The notes under the pieces are model-generated. The model worked only from the letters and a program-made list of their open reading frames with translations, searched no databases and was not told the origin of the DNA. The translations under genes were made by a program, and so were the position numbers. From positions 1-52,740 of IMG/VR virus record IMGVR_UViG_3300036861_000578: DNA of 52,740 nt; one strand, given 5' to 3'. The stretch's first letter is position 1. Every line of letters begins with the position of its first letter. Shown here in pieces: positions 3,474 to 47,564 of the stretch. This stretch comes from a virus (lineage: Duplodnaviria; Caudoviricetes).

Positions 3474-4907
3474 GTGCCCTGGCATGTTGCCGAGACGGCG
3501 GAGTGCCCGGCGTCCAAACCCTACGGCGTCATCAAGGATGCTGACGGGTCGGTCGATGGCCGATGCCACGCCACCCGCGAACAAGCCAACAAGCAGATGG
3601 CCGCCCTGTACGCGGCCGAGCCGCAAGCCTCAAGGAGGGCAGCCGTGGCCGTGTCGAACCGGCCCTGGTCGGACTTCACCCAGGCCGACTACACCGATGA
3701 GCAGTGGGCCCGCGCCTGCCTGATCGATACTGGCCAAGGCGAAGGCAAGCAGCGTTATAGCCTGCCGGTACGTGAACCCGGCGGGACGCTGAACCGCAAC
3801 GCCGTCCACAACGCCGCTGCCCGCCTCAACCAGGTCCAGGCACCAGCAGAGAAGAAGACGGCCGCCGCGCGGGCGCTGGTCCGCCTCTACGGCGAACTGG
3901 ACGAGGAACCACCCGACAGCCTGCGGCAGATGGCCGGCCAGAGCAGCAGTCGCGACGGTCAGCTGCTGGCCGGCCCCCATCTCTATGTCCGGTCGTTCCC
4001 GCTGGAGGACATCCGTATCCGCTCCGGCGGCGACGGCCGCACCGTCGAAGCCTACGCCGCCGTGTTCGACACTCCCGCGGAGATCCACGACCAGGACGGC
4101 CACTACACCGAGGTGAACGACCGGGTCATGTTCAACCGGGCCATCTCGGACGCCGCTCCCGCCGGCAGCCGCACCGGCTGGCGGGTGCGGGTGTTCTACA
4201 ACCACGCCCGCACGATCTACGGCACCCCATCCGAACGCGGGTCGATGCCGATCGGGACGCCGCTGGAGATCAAGGCCGACACCCGCGGCCTGCTCACCGT
4301 GACCCGCTACCACCGCACCGCGCTGGCTGATGAGGCGCTGGAGCTCATCCGCGAAGGCGCAATCGACGGGTACAGCTTCCAGGGCATGTACCTGCGGTCC
4401 TCGGCGACGGACACGGCTGGTCGGCCGATCACCCGTATCCCCCGCGGCGGGTTCCGCCCCGACCCGGCCGGCAAGCTGGTGACAGTACGGCGGATGGAGT
4501 CGACCCTCAAGGAGTACGGCCCGACCCCGTTCCCCGCCTACGTTGAGGCGGGCGTGGTCGGGATGCGCGCCGAGGCTGCCGCGCTGCTGTTGAGCGGCCT
4601 CGCCCCCGGCGAGCGTGCGCAACTCGCCGAACTGATCCGGGATGGCGCTCCCCCCGACGCTCCAGCCGAAGAGGCGGATTCGTCGGACGACCAGTCATCC
4701 CCCGACGCTCCCGACGATGGATCGGGACTCGTCGCCGACGACCCGCCCTCGGAACAGACCGAGGCGCACTCGAGCCGGCATGCCCTGCTGCAGCGGATCG
4801 CTGCGGCGAAGACGACTCGGCCGGGCCTGGCCCACGACCCGTACGTGGAGACGCTCCGCGAGCGGGCCCGCCAGATCGCCCGGCCGAAGGAAGGCGGCTC
4901 CGAGTGA
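3474..4907 (+). CDS. HK97-type prohead protease with a long N-terminal extension
   Basis: VEAYAAVFD, FYNH, GYSFQG and EYGPTPFPAY protease motifs; about 170 aa of extra N-terminal sequence. Confidence 0.85.
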   Translation: MPWHVAETAECPASKPYGVIKDADGSVDGRCHATREQANKQMAALYAAEPQASRRAAVAVSNRPWSDFTQADYTDEQWARACLIDTGQGEGKQRYSLPVREPGGTLNRNAVHNAAARLNQVQAPAEKKTAAARALVRLYGELDEEPPDSLRQMAGQSSSRDGQLLAGPHLYVRSFPLEDIRIRSGGDGRTVEAYAAVFDTPAEIHDQDGHYTEVNDRVMFNRAISDAAPAGSRTGWRVRVFYNHARTIYGTPSERGSMPIGTPLEIKADTRGLLTVTRYHRTALADEALELIREGAIDGYSFQGMYLRSSATDTAGRPITRIPRGGFRPDPAGKLVTVRRMESTLKEYGPTPFPAYVEAGVVGMRAEAAALLLSGLAPGERAQLAELIRDGAPPDAPAEEADSSDDQSSPDAPDDGSGLVADDPPSEQTEAHSSRHALLQRIAAAKTTRPGLAHDPYVETLRERARQIARPKEGGSE

Positions 4908-6301
4908 ACCTGCAAGACATCGTGAAGCGGCAGGAGGCGATCCGCGCCGAGCTGCAGACGATCGAGAAGAACCCGGCCTCCACCGAGGAGACCGACAGCG
5001 ACTACGTCGACACCCTCATCGGTGAGTTCGACGCGTTGGAGGAGCGCCGCAAGCCGCTGGCGGCTCGCGCGCAGAAGCTGAACCTCATCAGCGTCGCCGC
5101 CAAGGACCAGCCGGACGCCACCGAGGACGGCTCCGACCGTCAGGCGCCCGAGCAGATCTACCGCAACCGCCGCGACCCGTTCGACGCGATGGAGTCGGTG
5201 CGTTCCTCCGGCCCGACCGGGCTGCTGCCCGCCGGCGAGATCCGCTCCCGCGCGCAGGACGCGATCGAATGGGTCGGCCGCGCCGGGTTCGTCGACTTCC
5301 CCCACGATCACGCCGAACGGGCCAGCCAGCTCGTCACCAGCGTCCCGGGCGTCGCCAAGCACGTCCTGCTCACCGGCAGCCAGGAGTACTTCGAGGCGTT
5401 CCGGTCCTACCTCGCAGACCCCGAGGGGATGAGCCAGCGTGCCACCACCCTCGGCACCGGCAGCTTGGGCTTCATGCTCCCGTTCGTCCTAGATCCCACG
5501 ATCATCCTCACCAACGCCGGCAGCTCCAACCCCTACCGGCGGGTGTCGCGGGTGGAACAGACCACCAGTGTCGACTGGAATGGGGTCTCCTCGGCGGGTG
5601 TGAACGCCGCGTTCGTCGGTGAGGCGGTCGCTGCTAGCGATGCCTCCCCGACCGTCGGGCAGATCAAGATCACCCCCAAGCGGGCGCAGGCGTGGGTCTT
5701 CGGTAGCTATGAGTCGCTGGAGGACTCCAACCTCGGCACGCAGCTTCCCCGGCTGTTCGGCGACGCGAAGGACCGGCTGGAGGAGTCGGCGTTCTCCACC
5801 GGGGTCGGCACCGGCAACATCCCGCAGGGTGCGATGACTGCCGCGACGACCGGGAACACCGCCGCCGCGACCGCGTACGCCGTCGGCGACGTCTACACCC
5901 TGCAGGGTCGGCTCGGGCCGCGGTTCCGCAGCTCGCGGTCGACGGCATGGATGGCCAACCTCTTCTACATCAACAAGACCCGCCAGTTCGACACCTCCGG
6001 CGGTGCTGCATTCCTGGTCAACCTGGGTCAGGGCACCCCGAACATCCTGCTCGGCCAGCCCCTCTACGAATCCAGCTCGCTCTCGTCGGCGACCGGTTCC
6101 GGCTCCAAGGTCCTGCTGTACGGCGACTTCGAGCAGTATATAATTGTGGACAGAGTGGGCATGCGGGTTCTTTATAACCCAATGGTCACAGCGGCCGCAA
6201 CGGCCAACTTGCCCACCGCGGAAGCAGGCTGGTTCGCATACTGGCGCGTTGGCGCAGGGGTCAGTACTGCCAACGCTCTTCAGGCGCTGCTCATCCAGTA
6301 G
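4904..6301 (+). CDS. HK97-fold major capsid protein
   Basis: N-terminal coiled-coil delta domain; LLGQPLYES, LYGDFEQYIIVDRVG and FAYWRVG motifs. Confidence 0.92.
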   Translation: MNLQDIVKRQEAIRAELQTIEKNPASTEETDSDYVDTLIGEFDALEERRKPLAARAQKLNLISVAAKDQPDATEDGSDRQAPEQIYRNRRDPFDAMESVRSSGPTGLLPAGEIRSRAQDAIEWVGRAGFVDFPHDHAERASQLVTSVPGVAKHVLLTGSQEYFEAFRSYLADPEGMSQRATTLGTGSLGFMLPFVLDPTIILTNAGSSNPYRRVSRVEQTTSVDWNGVSSAGVNAAFVGEAVAASDASPTVGQIKITPKRAQAWVFGSYESLEDSNLGTQLPRLFGDAKDRLEESAFSTGVGTGNIPQGAMTAATTGNTAAATAYAVGDVYTLQGRLGPRFRSSRSTAWMANLFYINKTRQFDTSGGAAFLVNLGQGTPNILLGQPLYESSSLSSATGSGSKVLLYGDFEQYIIVDRVGMRVLYNPMVTAAATANLPTAEAGWFAYWRVGAGVSTANALQALLIQ

Positions 6302-26689: not shown

Positions 26690-28578
26690 TGGCGTGGACG
26701 ATCACGGTCGAGATGGCGTTCGCGACCCAGCCGATGGCGACGACGCCGACGTGGACGGATATCACGCAGTATGTGCTGGTCAAGGATGGGATCGTTCACA
26801 CGTGGGGCCGCACCGACGAGTTCGGCGACGTCCAGCCGTCTACCATCTCGGTGACGCTGAATAACCGTGATGGCCGGTTCACCCGCTTCCTTTCCAGCTC
26901 GCCCTACTATCCGAATGTGCGGAACGGTAAGCGGATCCGGGTGAGCGCGACCCGCAGCGCGGTGACGTACCGCCGCTTCGACGGGCATGTCAACGAATGG
27001 CCGACCGAATGGGTATCGGGCCGCGCGACCTACGCGGAGGCGAGGATCACCGCGACCGATCGGTTCAAACGGTTCGGTGCGCTCGGTGAGCTGCGCAGCA
27101 TGCTGGAGGAGGAGATCCTCCGCGACGACGCCATCGCCTACTACCCGCTCGGCGACCCGTCCGGCTCGACCACGGCGGGCAACATCAGCACCCAGATCCA
27201 GCCGGCTGCGGTGGTCCGGCAGGAAGGCTCCGGCGGGGAGATCAACTTCGCGACCGGGACCGGCCCAGGTACCGACGAGCTGTCGGCGCCGAGCTTCGAG
27301 CCGGTCGACGCCGATAACGGGAAGTACCTGGAGGCCAGCCCGCTGGGCACCAACGTCGGCGGCAACCCCGGCTACACGCTGGAGTGCTTCTTCGATGGCA
27401 TCGCGATCGGCAGCCGGATGCTGGCCGGTATCACCAACGCCTCCGGCGTCCACGCCATCCTGCAGCTGGACTCGACCGGGAAGCTGCAGGCCGAGCAGAC
27501 CATCCCCTTCCTGCCCGACGAGGTGACCACCTCCGCCGTCGAGGTCGATGACGGCGCGACCCACCACGGCGCGCTGACCGTGTCGATCTCGGGCACGACG
27601 GCGACGATGCGGCTCTACCTGGACGGCGTGGAGGTCGGCACCGCCCAGACGTGGTCGGTCCCGGGGGGAGCCCTGTCGACCTACTCGCGGCTGCTGGTGG
27701 GCGGCAACTCGACCGGCGACTGCTTCCGCGGCACGCTGTCTCACGTCGCCGCGCATTCCACCGCCCTGTCGGCTGCGCGCCTGCTCGACCATTACAACGC
27801 CGGCCGCCACGGCCTGGCCGGGGAGCGGACCGACCAGCGAATCGGCCGCATCGGCGACTGGGTTGGCATCCCGTCGGCCGACCGTGCCCTCGACGTCGGC
27901 GACTCGACCGTCAGCGCGCAGGCCACGTCCGGGCGGCAGCCGCTGGAGGTCATGCGGGAAGTTGAGAAGGCCGAAGCCGGCGTGCTCTATATCAGCGGGG
28001 ACAATAAGCTGACCCTGCACAACCGGTCGCGGCGGTACAACACGACACCGGCGGTCACGCTCACCGGCCAGCAGATCTTCGGCGATCTGCAATTCCCCGG
28101 TGACGACTTCGGCCTCACCAATGACATGACCGTGACCCGGTCCAACGACAACGAGGTCCGCGCGGTCGACCAGACCTCGATCGACGAGTTCGGCCTGTAC
28201 CGCGATACCCTGCAGATCCCCGCCGTGGACGACAGCGCGGCCCTGGCGGCGGCGCAATGGCGGGTCGGGAACTACGGCACGCCACGCACTCGGGTGCCGA
28301 ACGTCACCGTCGACCTCCACAAGCTGGAGAGCACCGCGCCCTCGCAGGTCGCGCTCCTGCTCGCTGCGGACATCTCGACCAAGCTGCGGCTGTCCAGCCT
28401 CCCCAGCCAGGCGCCCACCTCAACGGTGGACGTGTTCATCGAGGGCGGCACGGAGACGATCACGCCGAAGTTCTGGCGGATCACGTTCAACACCAGCCCC
28501 GGGGACTTCTCGCAGGTCTGGCAGCTCGGCGTCTCCGGGTTCAGTGAACTGGGTGATACGACGCGGCTCGGTTTGTGA
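26689..28578 (+). CDS. minor tail / baseplate protein with a LamG-like domain
   Basis: WTDITQYV, AYYPLGD, LYLDGVEV and GTLSHVA motifs. Confidence 0.75.
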   Translation: MAWTITVEMAFATQPMATTPTWTDITQYVLVKDGIVHTWGRTDEFGDVQPSTISVTLNNRDGRFTRFLSSSPYYPNVRNGKRIRVSATRSAVTYRRFDGHVNEWPTEWVSGRATYAEARITATDRFKRFGALGELRSMLEEEILRDDAIAYYPLGDPSGSTTAGNISTQIQPAAVVRQEGSGGEINFATGTGPGTDELSAPSFEPVDADNGKYLEASPLGTNVGGNPGYTLECFFDGIAIGSRMLAGITNASGVHAILQLDSTGKLQAEQTIPFLPDEVTTSAVEVDDGATHHGALTVSISGTTATMRLYLDGVEVGTAQTWSVPGGALSTYSRLLVGGNSTGDCFRGTLSHVAAHSTALSAARLLDHYNAGRHGLAGERTDQRIGRIGDWVGIPSADRALDVGDSTVSAQATSGRQPLEVMREVEKAEAGVLYISGDNKLTLHNRSRRYNTTPAVTLTGQQIFGDLQFPGDDFGLTNDMTVTRSNDNEVRAVDQTSIDEFGLYRDTLQIPAVDDSAALAAAQWRVGNYGTPRTRVPNVTVDLHKLESTAPSQVALLLAADISTKLRLSSLPSQAPTSTVDVFIEGGTETITPKFWRITFNTSPGDFSQVWQLGVSGFSELGDTTRLGL

Positions 28579-40900: not shown

Positions 40901-42424
40901 CCCGGGAACTGGACGGCGTCGAGTTCGGCCAGCGCGCCGCACCCATCATCCGTGTCGAGTTCTTCGACGTCATCGGAACGCCACTTGACCGGCGGGAGTG
41001 GATACCCCGGGACGGCATCGTATGGGTTCCCCGGGACGCTCGGCAGATGCGACTGACGATTGTGCCGGAGCCGACACCATGACCGGCCGCGAACTCGACG
41101 CCCTCGAACTCGACGAGCAACGCATCGCCGTGCCCCTGGAGCTCGAGAACCAGGCCGTCACCGACCAGCACATCGACCCGACTCTTGCCATGGCCGCGCG
41201 GCGCGCGTGGGTCGAGTACCTGGCCATGGCCGCCGCATGGGGAGGTGGGTCGTGAACTACTACGCCATCGCCACGGTCCGCGAGGTCCTCGCCGGTCGCA
41301 CCAACTCACGATGTCTCTTGGTCCTGGTCTGCGTACTGGTCGGCCACCGAGATCAAGACATCGTCCCGGGGGTCGCGCAGTGCCGACGCTGCTACCACAA
41401 CGCCCCCATCGGTGACGCGCCGAGAGGCTGGATCCCATGACCGCCGGATGGGGGGATGGGTCGGGATGAGCGGGGACGTGACTTGGCCGGAAGCCTTCCT
41501 CGGGGCAACCATCGTCATCGTCGTCTGCGCCTACTTCGCCTTTGTCGTTTGGCGGGTGGCCCGATGACTCCGTGGCTCGCGCTGCTGGCCGGGTTCGCCC
41601 TCGGCGGGCTGTTGCGCCGCGCGGAGACCATGGCCGCCCGCCGCCGGGCCCGCCAGTGGCGCTGGTCGTCGCAGCGGTGGCAGGCCGAAGCCGCCGACGC
41701 CTACCGCGAAGTCGCGTTCCTCGCAGAGCGGAACGAAGAGCTCCACAAGGCCATCGACGCCACGTTCCCCGCCGGCTATGACATCGGGTTCGGCGAAGCC
41801 GCCGGGATCCGGGTCGACCTTGGGGGAATAGAGCCATGACCGCCGCTGAAGCCGCCCGCCTCGACGCCAACCGGCAGGAACTCCTCTGGGACCTGCTGGA
41901 GCTGCGCCGCCTCGGCCTCGTCCAGATCAGCGAGGACGACGACGGGGTCATCACGTTCCAGCTCAGTCCCGACGGGGAACGCAAGGCCGCCGAGTTCGCC
42001 TTGCTGCTGCTACGAACCAGGGGTCGGCCATGAAATCTCATGCCTATCCGCGTTGCCAGGACACTATTGAAATCCGTGACCTGCTCGGGTTGAACCCGAT
42101 CGCTATCCAATGCCAGCGAGAGATCGTGAACGCCGCCGGCCGGCATGTCGGGCACATCCATCACCACTGCGAGTACGAGGTGGCCGGCTGCGAGCAGGCC
42201 CGGGTCAGCTGGACGAGGAGACCCTGATGAGCGCCGTCAACGGCACCGCCGATACCCCCGACATCCTCAAACGACCTTGGGACGCCGCCGCGGTCGCTGC
42301 CAACCTTCTGCAATCGCTGCTGGAGCGGCAGCAGCAGGGGAAGTTGACGATCTCGCAGGAGATCTCGCTGGCCGCTGCGTTGTCGGAGTTCAGCGAGGCG
42401 CAAAGGTGGATCAATACCGGATGA
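40897..42424 (+). other. run of small coupled hypothetical genes (40897-41082, 41079-41255, 41252-41440, 41564-41839, 41836-42033, 42030-42227, 42227-42424)
   Basis: Successive ATGA, GTGA and TGATG overlaps. Confidence 0.55.
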
Positions 42425-43668
42425 CCAGCGACCTGGAGATCTACCCCGACACCGATCGGACCCCGTCGACCCTGTTCGCTAGCCCGGACCCGGCCGCGAT
42501 CGTGGCGCAGGCGACCCGGATCGCCAACGAGATCGCCCCCCTCATCCGCGAACAGCGGCTCGTGAAACGGATCGGCCAATCCGACCATGTGTTCCTCGAG
42601 GGCTGGACGCTGGCGGGAACCATGCTCGGCGTGTTCCCCATCACCGTCTCGTCCGGCCCGATCGTTCACGAAGGCGAAGTCCTCGGTTACCAGGCCACCG
42701 TCGAGGCCCGCACCATGGCCGGGAACATGGTCGGGCGGGCCGACGCGCAATGCACCCACGACGAGAATGCGAAATGGCGCGACGCGCCGTCGTTCCAGCT
42801 CCGGTCGATGGCGATCACCCGCGCCAGCAGCAAAGCGTTGCGGATGCCGCTCGGGTTCGTGATGCATCTGGCCGGTTACGACGCGACCCCCGCCGAGGAG
42901 ATGGAAGCCGCCGCTGGCCGCGGCGAGACCGTCACCGGTGGCCGTGGGGTGCGGCCCGGGTGGCGCGACCTGGCTGAGCAGCAGCGCGCCCACGCGGAGG
43001 TCGGCCGGCTGATCGACGAGCACGGCTTGCGGTCGTGGGTTGCCAGCTGGTTGGAGTCCAAGTCGTATGAGCGGCCGCTGGCGAAGGGTCAGCTGAGCCA
43101 GCTCCGTAAGGCGATCGAACGTGAGGTCGCGCAGATGTCCGACCCGCCCGGTCCCGTCAGCCCCCCCGCGGACGGCCGAGGCGGGTCGGACCCCACGTCC
43201 CCGGCGTCTGGAAGGGGAAGGCAGAGTTCGGGGACCGCAACGTCCGGGGCGGGCGAGCGCGAGGATGTTGGCTCGCACCTCCGTCCTGACCGCCATGACC
43301 TCGCCCCGGACCTCTTGTCCCCGTCTGCCGACCCTATCGACGCCCACGAGGCACAGGGCACGGCAGGGCAGGGCGGGGACGCCAACGCGGGACCGGCCGA
43401 GTCAGATCCGCCGCGGGCAAATGGGGTCCCGACGGTGGACACGGGAGACTCGGCCGGTCCCGCTTACCCCGTCGAGGAATGGGCCATCAACCAGGACCCA
43501 CCCGTCGACCTGCGGCAGGCCAAGGTCGCGTTGCGGAAGCAGTTCAGGGAGGACTTCGGCTGGCTGAAGGACTGGAAGGACCTTCAGGAGTTGCAGGGCG
43601 AACAGGCTGCGAACGCGATCAAGGCGCTGGAAGCGATCTACCTCGACCCCGGAGAGGGGAAGCCATGA
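42421..43668 (+). CDS. conserved phage protein, possibly a single-strand annealing recombinase, with a hairpin-encoded low-complexity insert
   Basis: HVFLEGW...RSMAITRASSKALR...ATPAEEM; early-region position. Confidence 0.5.
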   Translation: MTSDLEIYPDTDRTPSTLFASPDPAAIVAQATRIANEIAPLIREQRLVKRIGQSDHVFLEGWTLAGTMLGVFPITVSSGPIVHEGEVLGYQATVEARTMAGNMVGRADAQCTHDENAKWRDAPSFQLRSMAITRASSKALRMPLGFVMHLAGYDATPAEEMEAAAGRGETVTGGRGVRPGWRDLAEQQRAHAEVGRLIDEHGLRSWVASWLESKSYERPLAKGQLSQLRKAIEREVAQMSDPPGPVSPPADGRGGSDPTSPASGRGRQSSGTATSGAGEREDVGSHLRPDRHDLAPDLLSPSADPIDAHEAQGTAGQGGDANAGPAESDPPRANGVPTVDTGDSAGPAYPVEEWAINQDPPVDLRQAKVALRKQFREDFGWLKDWKDLQELQGEQAANAIKALEAIYLDPGEGKP

Positions 43669-44243
43669 GCCGTCGGGCCGGTGTTGACGCGAAGTCCAAA
43701 GACGTTCCGCCCGGCGGGTCTAGCGTTCCCGCGCAACCCACAGAACATCCGGCTCGTCGGGCCGCCGCGAAACCGGAGTCCAACCCCCGCGCGCCCGACG
43801 GATCGGGTTATACCGAACTATATGAGGTGATCCGCGCTGCCGACACCGATCGCACCGTGGAGGCAAGAATACTGGCGATGCGGCTCATGGTAAAGCTGCA
43901 TACAGAGAAACGGTGCAGCCTGCTGGTGCCGATCCTCGCCAAGGAAATCGCCCAGATGCGTCGCCGTCATGTGCGAGGCGTCGAACAGAAGGTGAGGTTC
44001 ACCGGCGAGGCGTCAGCAGCGGATGGTGGGTGGCTGCAATTGCTTCCGGAAGGGTTCGCGATTCCAGATGGTCGATTCGTCACCTGGGCCGAGGCGACCG
44101 TCGAAGACCACGAAGCCCGCATTGAATGGCTACAGGGGCAGATCGAGGCCCTCGGCCAAGACGTCGACCGTCACCAGCAGGCCATCAAGCTCATCCGCGA
44201 ACATGGCGTCACCTGCCTTGCCGAAGTCGAGGACGCAGCATGA
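43665..44243 (+). CDS. Tas-adjacent protein whose N-terminus is encoded by TIGR-like units
   Basis: GAGGGG RBS, ATGA overlap; FVTWAEATVEDH...coiled coil. Confidence 0.7.
   Translation: MSRRAGVDAKSKDVPPGGSSVPAQPTEHPARRAAAKPESNPRAPDGSGYTELYEVIRAADTDRTVEARILAMRLMVKLHTEKRCSLLVPILAKEIAQMRRRHVRGVEQKVRFTGEASAADGGWLQLLPEGFAIPDGRFVTWAEATVEDHEARIEWLQGQIEALGQDVDRHQQAIKLIREHGVTCLAEVEDAA
43670..43801 (+). ncRNA. TIGR-like stem-array 1 (3 units, 42-bp period)
   Basis: Spacer pairs GTGTTGACG/AAGACGTTC, GCGTTCCCG/CAGAACATC and CCGCGAAAC/ACCCCCGCG; loops CGAAGTCCA, CGCAACCCA and CGGAGTCCA. Confidence 0.8.
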
Positions 44244-45550
44244 CCACCCAAGCTCGGGAGCGGGCCATACGCCTTGCGGATTCCGTGGCACGTCCGTCCG
44301 CTCCCGAACAACCGTCGGACCAGGCCAGCCGGTCTTCGTTGTCCACGCTCGATGCGCCTGGTTCCGGCTCTAACGGCCAGCAGCCCAATGTACTGCCGCA
44401 ATCCGAAGGGTCCGCGGCTGCTGGCACCAACGGGCAGAGGCGAACCATAGATTTCCCGGACTCCAGACTGCTCGCGGCCGCCTCTGCCTACCGTGAGCTG
44501 CGCGTTTTCGCCGAGCTATTCGCCGATGTACAGCAGACCCGCATCGCATGCGGCCACCGCGCCGGCCGCTGCATCCGCTGCATGCACATCCCCAAGGACC
44601 ACCAGAGAGCATGCGGCAAGGAAGGCTGCGCCTGCCCGAGCCTGTTTCTGCTCGACCCCGGGCAGCTCAAGCCGCAGCTCGACATGCTCGCCGCGACCGA
44701 GCACCAGCTCGGCCTCGCAATGGTCCGCTGCTACCGCCGCATCGTCGACCCGAGCATCCGCACCTGGCAGCAGGAGACGACCGGGATCGGCGAGCACCTC
44801 CTCGCCCGTCTCCTCGGCACCATCGGCCACCCCCGGCACGCCACGCCCTACCACTGGGAAGGTCAAGGCCCCGAGCGGGTCCTGATCTCCGACCCGCCGT
44901 TCGAGCGGAACGTCGCCAAGCTGTGGGCGTACTGCGGCCACGGCGATCCGGACCGGAAGCGGCGCAAGGGCATGACCGCCGAGGATGGCGCGGCGCTCGG
45001 CAACCCACGCGCGAAGATGCTCGTGCACCTGCTCGCCGAAGCCGCGATGAAATGCGTCGGCAGTGCCGCCACCGCCGAAGCGGAAGCCAGCGCGCATCCG
45101 CAGCCTGCCGACGCACAAGATGCCGGGTCGATCGCCACAGACGGCGCGGATTCCAGTGACCCTCCGCGATCGACCCGCGCACGTTCCCCGTACCGCGACA
45201 CTTACGAGGAGGCGCGACTACGGTTCGCCGACCGCGATTGGACCCCCGCACACCAGCACGCGGCGGCGCTGCGGTCGGTCGGTAAGGAGATCCTGCGGGA
45301 TCTGTGGCTGGCGGCCGGGGATCACTTGGCGGTCGAATCCCATACCGGACTCGTCCCCGGCGGCTACTCCCGTCGCGATATCCAAACTACAGCCGCCGCC
45401 GGGGACCATTCTGTTCGCGACATCCATACGGCAGCCGTCCCCGGCGGTTACATGCCTCGCGAAAACCAGCCCGCCCTCGCCGCCGGGGATTCCCTCCAGG
45501 CCGGGCACGCCAGCGTCGGCGTGCCTTCCCAACCGGAAGGGGACGGGTGA
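44240..45550 (+). CDS. TasA-like Nop/IS110-type RNA-binding protein without a nuclease domain, with a Zn-finger insertion
   Basis: Coiled coil DVQQTRIA; TGIGEHLLARLLG (HhH-like); KLWAYCG; GNPRAK; SPYRDTYEE; HAAALRSVGKEILRDLW. Confidence 0.8.
   Translation: MTTQARERAIRLADSVARPSAPEQPSDQASRSSLSTLDAPGSGSNGQQPNVLPQSEGSAAAGTNGQRRTIDFPDSRLLAAASAYRELRVFAELFADVQQTRIACGHRAGRCIRCMHIPKDHQRACGKEGCACPSLFLLDPGQLKPQLDMLAATEHQLGLAMVRCYRRIVDPSIRTWQQETTGIGEHLLARLLGTIGHPRHATPYHWEGQGPERVLISDPPFERNVAKLWAYCGHGDPDRKRRKGMTAEDGAALGNPRAKMLVHLLAEAAMKCVGSAATAEAEASAHPQPADAQDAGSIATDGADSSDPPRSTRARSPYRDTYEEARLRFADRDWTPAHQHAAALRSVGKEILRDLWLAAGDHLAVESHTGLVPGGYSRRDIQTTAAAGDHSVRDIHTAAVPGGYMPRENQPALAAGDSLQAGHASVGVPSQPEGDG
44254..44488 (+). 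ncRNA. TIGR-like stem-array 2 (4 units, exact 60-bp period)
   Basis: CCA at 44265, 44325, 44385 and 44445; each unit is CCA-9-CGNNNNCCR-9-CG closed by its own inverted repeat. Confidence 0.85.
45053..45177 (+). ncRNA. TIGR-like stem-array 3 (2 units, 66-bp period)
   Basis: Spacers CCGCCGAAG/GCGCGCATC and CAGACGGCG/GTGACCCTC; 11-bp flanking stems TGCGTCGGCAG/CTGCCGACGCA and CGGGTCGATCG/CGATCGACCCG. Confidence 0.8.
45314..45489 (+). ncRNA. TIGR-like stem-array 4 (4 units, 42-bp period)
   Basis: Loops CGAATCCCA, CGATATCCA, CGACATCCA and CGAAAACCA; 9-nt spacers; alternating GGGGA/TCCCC and CGGCGG/CCGCCG stems. Confidence 0.85.
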
Positions 45551-46407
45551 CCTGGCTGAAGATCGACGACCACTACGCGACCCACCAGAAGATCATCCGG
45601 GCGGGTCCGGTCGCGATGGCGCTTGACATCGCCGGGATGTGCTATAGCGCCAGCCACGGCACCGACGGATTCGTCCCGGCTGAGGCGCTGCCCGTAGTGG
45701 CACCGCTCCTGTCGAAGGCCAAGGCCGCAGCCTCCGTTGCCAAACTGATCGAGGTCGGCCGGTGGATCAAAGTCGACGATGGCTGGGAGATCCACGATTT
45801 CCTCGTCTACAATCCCTCGGCCGCTGAGCGCGATGAGCGGCTGGCGCTGCATGCGCGCCGCCAAGCCCTGTTCCGCGACAAGGACCTTCGGCAGCTCGTC
45901 CGCGAGCGAGACCATGACCACTGCCGCTACTGCGGCGTCGGGGTCCGGTGGCGTGATCGCAAAGGTCCCCTCGGCGGCACCTACGACCACATCGACCCCA
46001 AAGGCCCCAACTCGCTAGAAAACCTCGTCATCGCCTGCCGCAGCTGCAACTCGAAGAAGAAGGACCGCACCCCCGCCGACGCCGGCATGGATCTACTGCC
46101 GATCTACCTCGGATCTACTGCGGAATCAAACTACGGATCTACTGCGGATCAAGCTCCGGATCTACTCCCGCACGTACGCGCCTCAGATCCCGGCCCGTCC
46201 CCGTCGTCCCGTCCAAAGACGGGACGGGACGACTCCCCCCAGCCCCCCGCTGCCAGCCCGGCCGGCAGTTCGCAAGCGGCCGCCGACCTGGCAGCGGAAC
46301 CCCAAAACAACGGCCAGCCAGCAACAGCTGCGCAGAAGGCGCTGCTCAGGGCTGCGCTGGAACGACGCCGCCAGGACGCCGACGCCGAGGAAGTGAACGA
46401 GCCATGA
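45547..46407 (+). CDS. putative replication initiator with an embedded HNH domain
   Basis: MTWLKIDD...TDGFVP...WEIHDF actinophage Rep-like N-terminus; CRYCG...DHIDP...NLVIACRSCN. Confidence 0.7.
   Translation: MTWLKIDDHYATHQKIIRAGPVAMALDIAGMCYSASHGTDGFVPAEALPVVAPLLSKAKAAASVAKLIEVGRWIKVDDGWEIHDFLVYNPSAAERDERLALHARRQALFRDKDLRQLVRERDHDHCRYCGVGVRWRDRKGPLGGTYDHIDPKGPNSLENLVIACRSCNSKKKDRTPADAGMDLLPIYLGSTAESNYGSTADQAPDLLPHVRASDPGPSPSSRPKTGRDDSPQPPAASPAGSSQAAADLAAEPQNNGQPATAAQKALLRAALERRRQDADAEEVNEP
46089..46166 (+). repeat. iteron-like repeats (candidate replication origin)
   Basis: GATCTAC at 46090, 46101, 46112, 46136 and 46159; CGGATCTACTGCGGA occurs twice. Confidence 0.7.
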
Positions 46408-46695: not shown

Positions 46696-46926
46696 ATGAC
46701 CCACCTCGACGCCGACCTGGCCCGCGAGGCGGAACTTGACCGGCTGCTGATGGATCGCTGCGCCGCTGCCTGCTGCTGCACGGAGACGGCGACGCTGATG
46801 ACCGAATGGCTTGACCGTGCCCTGCATGGCACGAGTTGGGCCAGGGATGCCTCGACCCGCGAGGTCTGGATGACGCTGCTGGACGAGGCGCGACGCTATA
46901 GCGTGAAAGCAGGCTACCCACGATGA
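46696..46926 (+). CDS. hypothetical protein
   Basis: GAAGAGG RBS. Confidence 0.55.
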   Translation: MTHLDADLAREAELDRLLMDRCAAACCCTETATLMTEWLDRALHGTSWARDASTREVWMTLLDEARRYSVKAGYPR

Positions 46927-47564
46927 CCCAGCTCGACGCCGACCTGACCGCCGAACGGTCGCGGCCTGCGTGGAAGGGGTTGTCACCGCCGTATGCCACG
47001 ATCGTGGCCGACCCGCCATGGCCGCAGCAGGGCGGTGGCCCGCTGGTGCGCGGCGTCGGTGAGCGCTTCCGGCGCCCGGACGAACGGCCCGGCCCGAGCC
47101 TGCTGCTGCCGTACTCGACCATGACCCTTGCGGAGATCGCTGCGCTCCCGGTCGGCGAGCTGGTCGGTCGCCAAGCCCACCTGTACCTGTGGGTCACCAA
47201 CGGGTTCCTCCTGGACACCAAGCCCATCCTGGCTGCGTGGGGGTTCACCTACTCCACCACGCTGGTCTGGGCCAAGGAGCCGATGGGCGGCGGCCTTGGT
47301 GGCGCCTATGGCATCGCCACCGAGTTTGTGGTGTTCGGCTATCGCGGTCGCGTCCGCGCGCGGGCCAGGGTCGGGCGTAACTGGTTCACTTGGAAACGGC
47401 CCTACAGCTACACCGGCAAGCCCATGCACTCTGCTAAGCCACCGGGCCTCCAGGATATGATCGAGCAAGTCTCGCACGGCCCCTACGTGGAGCTGTTTTG
47501 CCGGCAGCCTCGCCTCGGCTGGGACTCGTGGGGCTGGGGCTACGAACAGGCAGCCGCCCAATGA
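46923..47564 (+). CDS. MT-A70-family adenine methyltransferase
   Basis: IVADPPW, LYLWVTN, AWGF, HSAKP and YVELFCR motifs. Confidence 0.9.
   Translation: MTQLDADLTAERSRPAWKGLSPPYATIVADPPWPQQGGGPLVRGVGERFRRPDERPGPSLLLPYSTMTLAEIAALPVGELVGRQAHLYLWVTNGFLLDTKPILAAWGFTYSTTLVWAKEPMGGGLGGAYGIATEFVVFGYRGRVRARARVGRNWFTWKRPYSYTGKPMHSAKPPGLQDMIEQVSHGPYVELFCRQPRLGWDSWGWGYEQAAAQ

Follow-up and report, generated by a model that had tools for sequence, protein, structure and literature searches.

A stem-loop TIGR array inside two translated phage genes and its candidate 17-bp targets in head and packaging genes of other mobile elements

Introduction

TIGR-Tas systems were described in 2025 and are under development as compact genome tools that need no adjacent motif. 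According to the accessible portions of the papers cited here, to which all our comparisons with them are limited, TIGR units carry a box C (CCA), a box D (UG) and 9-nucleotide (nt) spacers, of which A and B pair with opposite strands, and arrays of the stem-loop type accompany the protein TasA (Faure et al. 2025, PMC12045711). The modal loop of TIGR stem-loops measures 9 nt, intragenic tigRNA arrays have already been published, and so has repression by other TasA proteins (Xu et al. 2026, bioRxiv 10.64898/2026.09.09.750476). Natural targets are said not to be determinable yet, and the origin of the spacer pairs is stated as an open problem (Faure et al. 2025; Xu et al. 2026). The described systems nearest to ours are PlTasA, from a Peromyscus leucopus gut contig with 13 stem-loop units (Faure et al. 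2025; Guan et al. 2026), and BlTasA (Xu et al. 2026). Here we report on a virus record of IMG/VR (IMGVR_UViG_3300036861_000578; Duplodnaviria, Caudoviricetes), whose entire 52,740 nt form the window that was analysed and whose estimated completeness is 73%. Its positions 43681–45477, which fall within two translated genes of the + strand (43665–44243 and 44240–45550), hold a stem-loop TIGR array of 13 units, and the second gene is tasA-like. We consider it likely that this array in the tasA-like gene and the gene upstream has overlapped targets of 17 base pairs (bp) in head and packaging genes of rival elements.

As in PlTasA and BlTasA, each unit holds two 9-nt spacers, each between a box C (CCA) and a box D (CG or TG), the loop has about 9 nt, palindromic stems replace edge repeats, the units are grouped into sub-arrays, the associated protein is a nuclease-less Nop-domain protein, and the spacers address opposite strands in the order A + reverse complement of B, written A + revcomp(B) below. 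As in BlTasA, units lie in the tas coding sequence, in disordered regions and with the frame intact; unlike in BlTasA, the array lies partly in the coding sequence of a neighbouring gene and not in tas alone. Array type, intragenic position and opposite-strand rule are already known. Unlike for PlTasA, the natural matches found here fit 17 bp with a shared central pair and not two abutting stretches of nine (18 bp), the 18-bp target being a property of the studied TaTasR, CsTasR and PlTasA rather than a stated definition of the TIGR-Tas family. Furthermore, unlike for published TIGR systems, candidate natural targets can be named. Published targets are 18 bp long, and natural ones are described as not yet determinable. 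Both the 17-bp overlap and the targeting of head genes therefore look new: neither appears in the accessible portions of the TIGR-Tas papers, whose supplementary data may hold clade-level covariation or this locus. If true, they would give TIGR-Tas systems their first set of natural targets and a second geometry, in which the half-sites overlap.

Results and Discussion

Candidate natural targets and half-site spacing

Units were detected by scanning 43600–45600 for CG-N4-CC-R and then setting the matches in register. Relative to the core start, spacer A spans core−9 to core−1 and spacer B core+9 to core+17, with 43681 as A1 of unit 1 and 45477 as B9 of unit 13. The layout of a unit is stem, box C (CCA), 9-nt spacer A, box D (CG), N4, box C, 9-nt spacer B, box D, stem, and the units form four sub-arrays: three units 42 nt apart, four at 60 nt, two at 66 nt and four at 42 nt.

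The initial annotation had offered two readings of the ninth bases. In the first, each spacer reads a different strand and the two share one central bp, which predicts a 17-bp target of the form A + revcomp(B); in the second, these bases pair inside the RNA and the effective spacers are 8 nt long. Natural matches at 17 bp only support the first reading, and a database search with overlap variants in both orders showed enrichment for A + revcomp(B) overlapped by 1 bp. By our own derivation, this order also follows from the published cleavage rule and the 8-nt 3' overhang. For this search 34 loci were retrieved by homology to the L209 portal protein, independently of the spacers, and 33 of them were scored (230,741 nt). 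With at most two mismatches, cognate spacers gave 37 matches at 1-bp overlap and none at an overlap of 2 or at gaps of 0–3, and mispaired spacers, serving as control, gave 1.08 matches per 13 pairs. Units 4, 1 and 8 contribute 13, 12 and 10 of the 37, units 2 and 7 one each. The opposite order yielded only five matches, all from the GC-rich unit 8. When scoring was restricted to the outer 16 bases, so that no spacing is favoured, the 26 loci that had not entered the analysis before (169,154 nt) contained seven cognate matches with at most one mismatch at 17 bp and none at 16, 18, 19, 20 or 21 bp (mispaired, 0.08 per 13); at up to two mismatches there were 27 at 17 bp vs 0–3 at the other spacings (mispaired, 2–4). 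In 30 of 34 matches the target has A9 as its central base (10/10 for unit 1, 10/10 for unit 8 and 10/14 for unit 4).

The individual sites fall into a small set of genes. L279, L282 and L289 each match unit 1 perfectly (17/17), at the 3' end of a major-head gene that shortly precedes the portal gene; the site occupies the last major-head codons, and in L274 and L282 it is separated from the portal start by 11–12 nt. The 17-bp site of unit 8 recurs, with one or two mismatches, in 10 loci of the target family. In seven of these it stands some 2 kb beyond the portal, in the gene of the terminase large subunit where annotated (L283, L289); the other three sites fall within the portal match. For unit 2 no convincing target was found, the target family holding one match with two mismatches.

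A wider viral collection was scanned with the pattern A1–8, one to four free bases, revcomp(B1–8); with one to four bases left free, a single scan covers the 17-bp overlap, the abutting 18-bp site and gaps of 1–2 bp. Unit 7 found 84 places, with the predicted middle in 12 of 15 one-base hits and in none of eight two-base (18-bp) hits. Its 17-mer TAGATTTCCGAGCAGTC occurs exactly in 12 viral contigs, always in major-head genes, where it encodes the peptide DCSEIY in three divergent families; its three-base hits (53) are also in excess and come mostly from one unrelated low-GC family. For unit 4 there were 60 places, with the predicted middle in 18/25 one-base and 0/9 two-base hits. The 17-mer TACGCCTTGACGTGCCA is exact in 18 contigs, in portal genes (high-GC), in terminase genes (a mid-GC family) and in three single contexts; in the portal gene of the target family it encodes the peptide WHVKAY. 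Two of the three 17-mers that the initial annotation had written out as examples, TAGATTTCCGAGCAGTC and TACGCCTTGACGTGCCA, thus occur in nature. Unit 9 gave 54 places (predicted middle in 7/19 one-base and 1/17 two-base hits), its exact 17-mers lying in five contexts, two of which are terminase large subunit genes. Chance-like spreads were obtained with units 5 (at least 120 places), 10 (37 places) and 12 (67 places; predicted middle in 1/10 one-base and 1/19 two-base hits), and these three scans of the viral collection revealed no conserved target family; no target was found for units 3 and 6 either. By PHROG, the target genes belong to major head phrog_10, portal phrog_12 and terminase large subunit phrog_9. 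The seven major-head loci held no further cognate match with fewer than two mismatches to other units of the window.

On these matches, at least four units (1, 4, 7 and 8) appear to be aimed at major-head, portal and terminase genes of other mobile elements, and unit 9 is probably aimed at such genes as well. Most of the putative targets lie in one family of small high-GC contigs encoding a serine integrase and a head module.

The contigs of this family (L289 and L274–L304) are all 4–13.5 kb long and of high GC. In L289 (13,496 nt) the gene order is serine integrase, major head protein, portal, head protease, terminase large subunit. Instead of complete phages, these contigs may represent small integrative elements that encode a capsid, and they resemble the phiRv1-type elements of mycobacteria.

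An independent, homologous array confirms the geometry. In L015, whose Tas protein is 57% identical over the best tblastn segment, one unit matches the same portal site with an offset of 6 nt; it does so in 23 loci and at the 17-bp spacing only. This unit is homologous to unit 4 and has G/G as A9/B9, and the central base of its sites fits B9 or A9 depending on the sub-family. Altogether, 231 homologous units compared with all retrieved viral loci stayed near control level, except for the L015 portal matches and for 18-bp matches of L026 (see below).

The initial annotation had found no self-target by eye, and our scan agrees: in the window there is no cognate match with up to two mismatches in the order A + revcomp(B) at any spacing. 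One unit 8 match in the opposite order is at control level, and with up to three mismatches the counts equal those of the mispaired control. The head genes of the window contain no site, and no protein similarity to the head protein of the target family was detected in them.

In the window's own terminase gene (230–1717), the counterpart of the unit 9 target (1634–1650) carries mismatches at 3 of its 17 bases, the central one among them, which is consistent with a phage sparing itself while matching its relatives.

Covariation of the ninth spacer bases

In unit order, A9/B9 are G/C, G/C, C/G, G/C, T/G, C/G, C/G, G/C, G/C, T/T, G/C, G/C and G/T. Rescanning hence reproduced exactly both the list of the initial annotation and its tally of 10 Watson-Crick pairs, two G/T and one mismatch (T/T) among 13, compared with 25/121 Watson-Crick for the same motif elsewhere in the window. 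When B9 was re-dealt among the 13 units, 10 or more pairs arose in 0.08% of 100,000 shuffles; with all 81 A × B column pairs allowed for, 10 pairs arose in 3.8% of 20,000 shuffles (family-wise P 0.038). Taken in the window only, the covariation is real but marginal.

Comparison with relatives suggests that it is weakly replicated. Among 232 distinct units from 46 homologous loci, 82 are Watson-Crick at A9/B9 vs 56.2 expected. With B shuffled within its own locus only, 77/214 units pair vs 56.0 ± 5.4, a value equalled in 0 of 5000 shuffles (family-wise P 0.007 over 81 pairs), and after removal of near-duplicate units 75/219 pair vs 52.9 expected (P 0.00065). Swapping partners between same-phase neighbours leaves 27/144 pairs, vs 47/144 for cognates. 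Heterogeneity of the pairing between arrays is borderline (P 0.054), and the columns adjoining A9/B9 show no pairing in the window units or in the homologous units. Homologous arrays thus covary, and natural matches exceed those of mispaired spacers, the two outcomes on which the initial annotation had staked its prediction.

Complementarity of A9 and B9 would be expected because, in this clade, both spacers would read one shared central base pair, two 9-nt spacers then spanning a 17-bp target. The weaker complementarity in relatives would mean that one mismatched ninth base is tolerated, as seems to be the case.

Weighing of the geometry

A number of observations speak against an overlapped 17-bp target. 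The target of CsTasR is 18 bp overall (Xu et al. 2026), the spacers in the PlTasA and TaTasR structures form nine pairs each and abut (Guan et al. 2026), and Faure et al. (PMC12045711) saw no obvious A/B covariation in their arrays. Of the homologous units only ~35% (82/232) are complementary at A9/B9, and some homologous arrays have no complementary unit at all (0/5, 0/5, 0/6). In homologous arrays (L009–L075) the column pair A4/B5, for which there is no rationale, is as strong as A9/B9 (z 3.4–3.6); as it reaches the same z (3.6), the shuffle null may be too narrow. In the window, exchanging B9 between neighbouring units still leaves 10 of 18 pairs, because G and C dominate both ninth-base columns. 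Eight of the 13 units are without a candidate target, and unit 9 is ambiguous. The L026 unit at 2115 fits an abutting 18-bp site with one mismatch in seven related target-family loci (L146, L286, L287 and L291–L294). Chance would be expected to supply as many contexts in that screen, and the match reflects either chance or the use of both spacings. Finally, the target loci are interrelated, and the independent events therefore number about five sites plus the L015 site, not dozens.

Should the published abutting 18-bp geometry apply here as well, the A9/B9 pattern would be due to chance or composition and the 17-bp matches would be chance hits of short sequences. The family-wise P of 0.038 within the window and the 10/18 pairs after swapping are compatible with such a view, each 16-base pattern finds 37 to more than 120 places in the viral collection, and Xu et al. 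(2026) caution that short spacers yield many false matches. Nonetheless, we regard it as very improbable, given that the target family has 0 cognate matches at 18 bp vs 37 at 17 bp, that the perfect unit 1 match sits in loci retrieved by portal homology and not by spacer, that the sites of four units all fall in the head module of a single element family, that the L015 array matches the same portal site, and that the control scans of units 5, 10 and 12 show what a chance pattern looks like (for unit 12, the predicted middle in 1/10).

The 17-bp geometry could also hold with eight bases of each spacer being read and the central pair left unread (8+1+8). A9/B9 complementarity would then be a by-product of spacer making, for instance of copying 9 nt from each strand's 5' end of a 17-bp duplex, or a pair formed in the free RNA. 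This fits SpTasH, whose heteroduplexes have one pair fewer than the nine-pair heteroduplexes of PlTasA and TaTasR (Guan et al. 2026), as well as the G/G unit of L015, which still matches its site with a centre that suits one spacer only; the low share of complementary homologous units and the 3/13 window units that are not Watson-Crick point the same way. On the other side stands the identity of the central base with A9 in 30/34 natural matches of units 1, 4 and 8, yet the by-product model predicts this identity as well, so that it does not decide between the two. As for a pair within the RNA, the ninth bases adjoin different box D motifs and occupy pseudo-symmetric places in the published figure-eight RNA, which makes an intramolecular pair unlikely in the complex, and there is no helix context, the neighbouring columns being unpaired. 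We judge an unread central pair to be unlikely overall.

If the overlapped reading of 17 bp is true, it hints at an origin of spacer pairs in 17-bp duplexes, with the 5' end of each strand supplying one spacer. It would also mean that half-site spacing is not fixed at 18 bp across the family, which matters for target prediction and tool design, and it offers a target-finding rule for other arrays: A + revcomp(B) with a one-base overlap, and mispaired spacers as control.

The array as an RNA element

All 13 units contain the succession box C, 9-nt spacer, box D in two copies separated by 4 nt. Box D is CG both times in all 13, the second box C is CCA or CCG, and the first is CCA in seven units, CTA in two and CCG, TCA or TTA in four; the triplets CCG, TCA and TTA are outside the published box C list for TIGR stem-loop arrays. 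Counted with its boxes (CG-N4-CCR), the loop has 9 nt in 13/13 units, which matches the published mode of 9–10 nt. Flanking stems of 8–11 bp abut the boxes directly in 11/13 units (at least 5 bp being the criterion for stem-loop TIGR), the exceptions being unit 7, with an 11-bp stem after a 2-nt skip, and unit 8, with an offset stem seen by RNAfold only.

The strict motif CCA-N9-CG-N4-CCR-N9-CG occurs 14 times in the window vs 1.83 expected from shuffles, and 7/14 lie inside the tasA-like gene, in a stretch of 1.2 kb. A unit finder (boxes plus a stem of at least 6 bp) recovered 12/13 array units on the + strand, one unit at 27789 and four on the - strand of the window; applied to 67 homologous loci, it found 284 units on the tas strand vs 19 on the other. 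A strict motif with a 6-bp stem thus also stands at 27789–27820, far from the array, probably by chance.

Generic searches do not see the array. Tandem Repeats Finder (TRF) reported no tandem repeat in 43681–45477 and a repeat finder did not detect the array either, only the 2–3-nt boxes being constant; a plain search for the conserved 8-mer CGGATTCC with one mismatch allowed gave 65 matches vs 63.5 expected, which is chance level; and Rfam returned nothing above chance for the array, assigning no Rfam family. A look-up of sequencing runs for this stretch listed no RNA run and a single DNA run, possibly the source of the record. Iterons, centromere-like repeats, an antisense overlapping gene and DnaA boxes had been considered and were dropped once the TIGR layout fitted.

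As all units are translated, peptide repeats and GC-rich codons were suspected first. On this reading there would be no RNA element, only degenerate peptide repeats in disordered protein regions combined with GC-rich codon usage. Indeed, all units lie in open reading frames (ORFs), the spacings of 42, 60 and 66 nt are each a multiple of three, and homologues retain loosely similar peptide motifs at the same places. Synonymous-codon shuffling of both genes, however, left 2.68 ± 1.49 loose motifs (maximum 8 in 2000 shuffles) vs 16 observed, and 0.31 strict motifs vs 7 observed. Among homologous ORFs, 21/31 were above their own shuffles at P <= 0.02; the remaining ten had P > 0.02, eight of these being motif-free. 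Moreover, one DNA motif is used in two codon phases: the C of the core is at codon position 2 in units 1–9 and at position 3 in units 10–13, and single homologous ORFs mix both phases, sometimes with an identical 9-mer in both. Between the close relatives L020 and L022, 30-nt flanking windows are 93–100% identical over the first 270 nt and 80–100% further along the gene, whereas windows bearing spacers show 57–63% identity next to adjacent windows at 90–97%, with boxes, loops and stems or linkers unchanged. Spacers have thus been replaced wholesale, block by block. Together with the 8–11 bp stems beside the units and the strand bias of 284 to 19 in homologous loci, these synonymous-shuffle, codon-phase, spacer-replacement and stem tests rule out the codon artefact, to which we attach practically no credence.

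The array resembles CRISPR arrays in that conserved short elements alternate with fast-changing spacers matching other mobile elements. It differs from them in that 2–3 conserved bases and a stem of free sequence take the place of identical repeats of ~20 nt or more, each unit has two 9-nt spacers, which address opposite strands, cas genes are absent, and the array is translated.

Tas protein and putative mode of action

The protein encoded at 44240–45550 matches PHROG 4285 (E 1.3e-27). A profile of 12 family members compared with PDB sequences found the TasR entry 9mty (E 2.4e-9) and TasH 21kl (E 8.3e-7). In the AlphaFold model (mean pLDDT 72), a helical hairpin and a compact Nop-like domain are confident and the rest consists of disordered tails, the low-pLDDT regions coinciding exactly with the unit positions. 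Foldseek placed TasR and TasH chains at ranks 1–10 (E 7e-7 to 7e-5), followed by IS110-family recombinases at ranks 12–15. Pfam detected no domain in the protein, and hence no RuvC or HNH nuclease domain; among 63 family members it gave only two weak Transposase_20 matches. Because both a Pfam domain and a nuclease domain are absent, the modelled protein is classed as a nuclease-less Tas protein of the TasA type.

With TasR and TasH (TaTasR 9mty, SpTasH 21kl and others) it shares the fold, box C CCA and the tandem-spacer rule, but unlike them it is without RuvC or HNH, is accompanied by stems and not by edge repeats of 8–12 nt, and has CG instead of UG as box D. TaTasR tolerates gaps of 1–2 bp and is reported without A/B covariation, a 1-bp overlap going unmentioned in the accessible text (Faure et al. 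2025). IS110-family recombinases with their bridge RNA (IS621, ISCro4) are similar in having a related RNA-binding domain and a guide split between two strands, and relatives of our protein are labelled 'transposase' in PHROG and in some GenBank records. Unlike in IS110 elements, no N-terminal DEDD/RuvC domain and no element ends were found, and there are thirteen units vs one two-loop bridge RNA.

By analogy with the described systems, the units would be excised as small RNAs (stem-boxC-A-boxD-loop-boxC-B-boxD-stem) from the mRNA or a longer transcript, and a dimer of the nuclease-less Tas protein would bind each excised tigRNA. The spacers would open the target and each pair with a different strand, the 3' ends of A and B meeting at the centre. 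Since TasA is devoid of a nuclease and repression of transcription is published for other TasA proteins (Xu et al. 2026), a block on the rivals' head and packaging genes is likely; binding may hinder transcription or replication of the rival element. The candidate targets are all in head or packaging genes of other elements, which would make inter-element warfare the native role of phage TasA. We lean slightly towards the full version of this scheme, in which the intragenic guides of a soil phage, reading both strands of the central pair, shut down capsid, portal and terminase genes of host-sharing small elements and rival phages.

Units and neighbouring genes

All units are on the + strand. 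The first sub-array comprises unit 1 (43678–43709, core start 43690), with A9/B9 G/C and an 8-bp stem, made up of box C CCG, spacer A at 43681–43689, loop CGAAGTCCA, spacer B at 43699–43707 and box D CG; unit 2 (43720–43751, core 43732; G/C, 11-bp stem); and unit 3 (43762–43793, core 43774; C/G, 8-bp stem). In the second follow unit 4 (44265–44296, core 44277; G/C, 11-bp stem), unit 5 (44325–44356, core 44337; T/G, 8-bp stem), unit 6 (44385–44416, core 44397; C/G, 9-bp stem) and unit 7 (44445–44476, core 44457; C/G, the 11-bp stem after its skip). The third is formed by unit 8 (45069–45100, core 45081; G/C, the offset stem) and unit 9 (45135–45166, core 45147; G/C, 11-bp stem). The fourth holds unit 10 (45322–45353, core 45334; T/T, 8-bp stem), unit 11 (45364–45395, core 45376; G/C, an 11-bp stem common to its neighbours), unit 12 (45406–45437, core 45418; G/C, 11-bp stem) and unit 13 (45448–45479, core 45460; G/T, 11-bp stem).

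The upstream gene (43665–44243, + strand) encodes 192 amino acids of no known family, with no Pfam family and one weak PHROG match, and its N-terminal codons hold units 1–3. Its homologue in L015 (49% identity) likewise carries units at the 5' end, four of them, spaced by 42 nt. The tasA-like gene (44240–45550, + strand; 436 amino acids, a coiled coil plus a Nop-type domain, nuclease domain absent) accommodates units 4–7 at residues ~5–83, units 8–9 at ~277–309 and units 10–13 at ~361–414. The starts and stops of both genes overlap their neighbours by 4 nt. A comparison by blastn with phage records gave no match for the array region. Elsewhere, the gene calls of the window include the terminase large subunit (230–1717), a major head protein (4904–6301), a tape measure protein and other phage genes.

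The stop of the tasA-like gene is overlapped by the start of an HNH-domain gene (45547–46407, + strand; Pfam HNH, E 2.6e-7; PHROG HNH and replication-initiation families). A fused HNH is a feature of TasH; a separate HNH protein beside the tasA-like gene is a candidate partner only. The N-terminal part of its product is like PHROG 'replication initiation protein' families, and inside the gene, at 46089–46166, about seven head-to-tail copies of the 11-nt unit GGATCTACTGC (TRF periods 11 and 23) look like the iterons of a replication origin. Some 500 nt beyond it lies an MT-A70 DNA methyltransferase gene (46923–47564). On the other side of the array, just upstream of the first sub-array and inside gene 42145–43668, there is a perfect 17-nt inverted repeat with arms at 43387–43403 and 43447–43463 and 43 nt between them; it contains, by eye, one CAA-N9-CG interval and may be a decayed or atypical unit.

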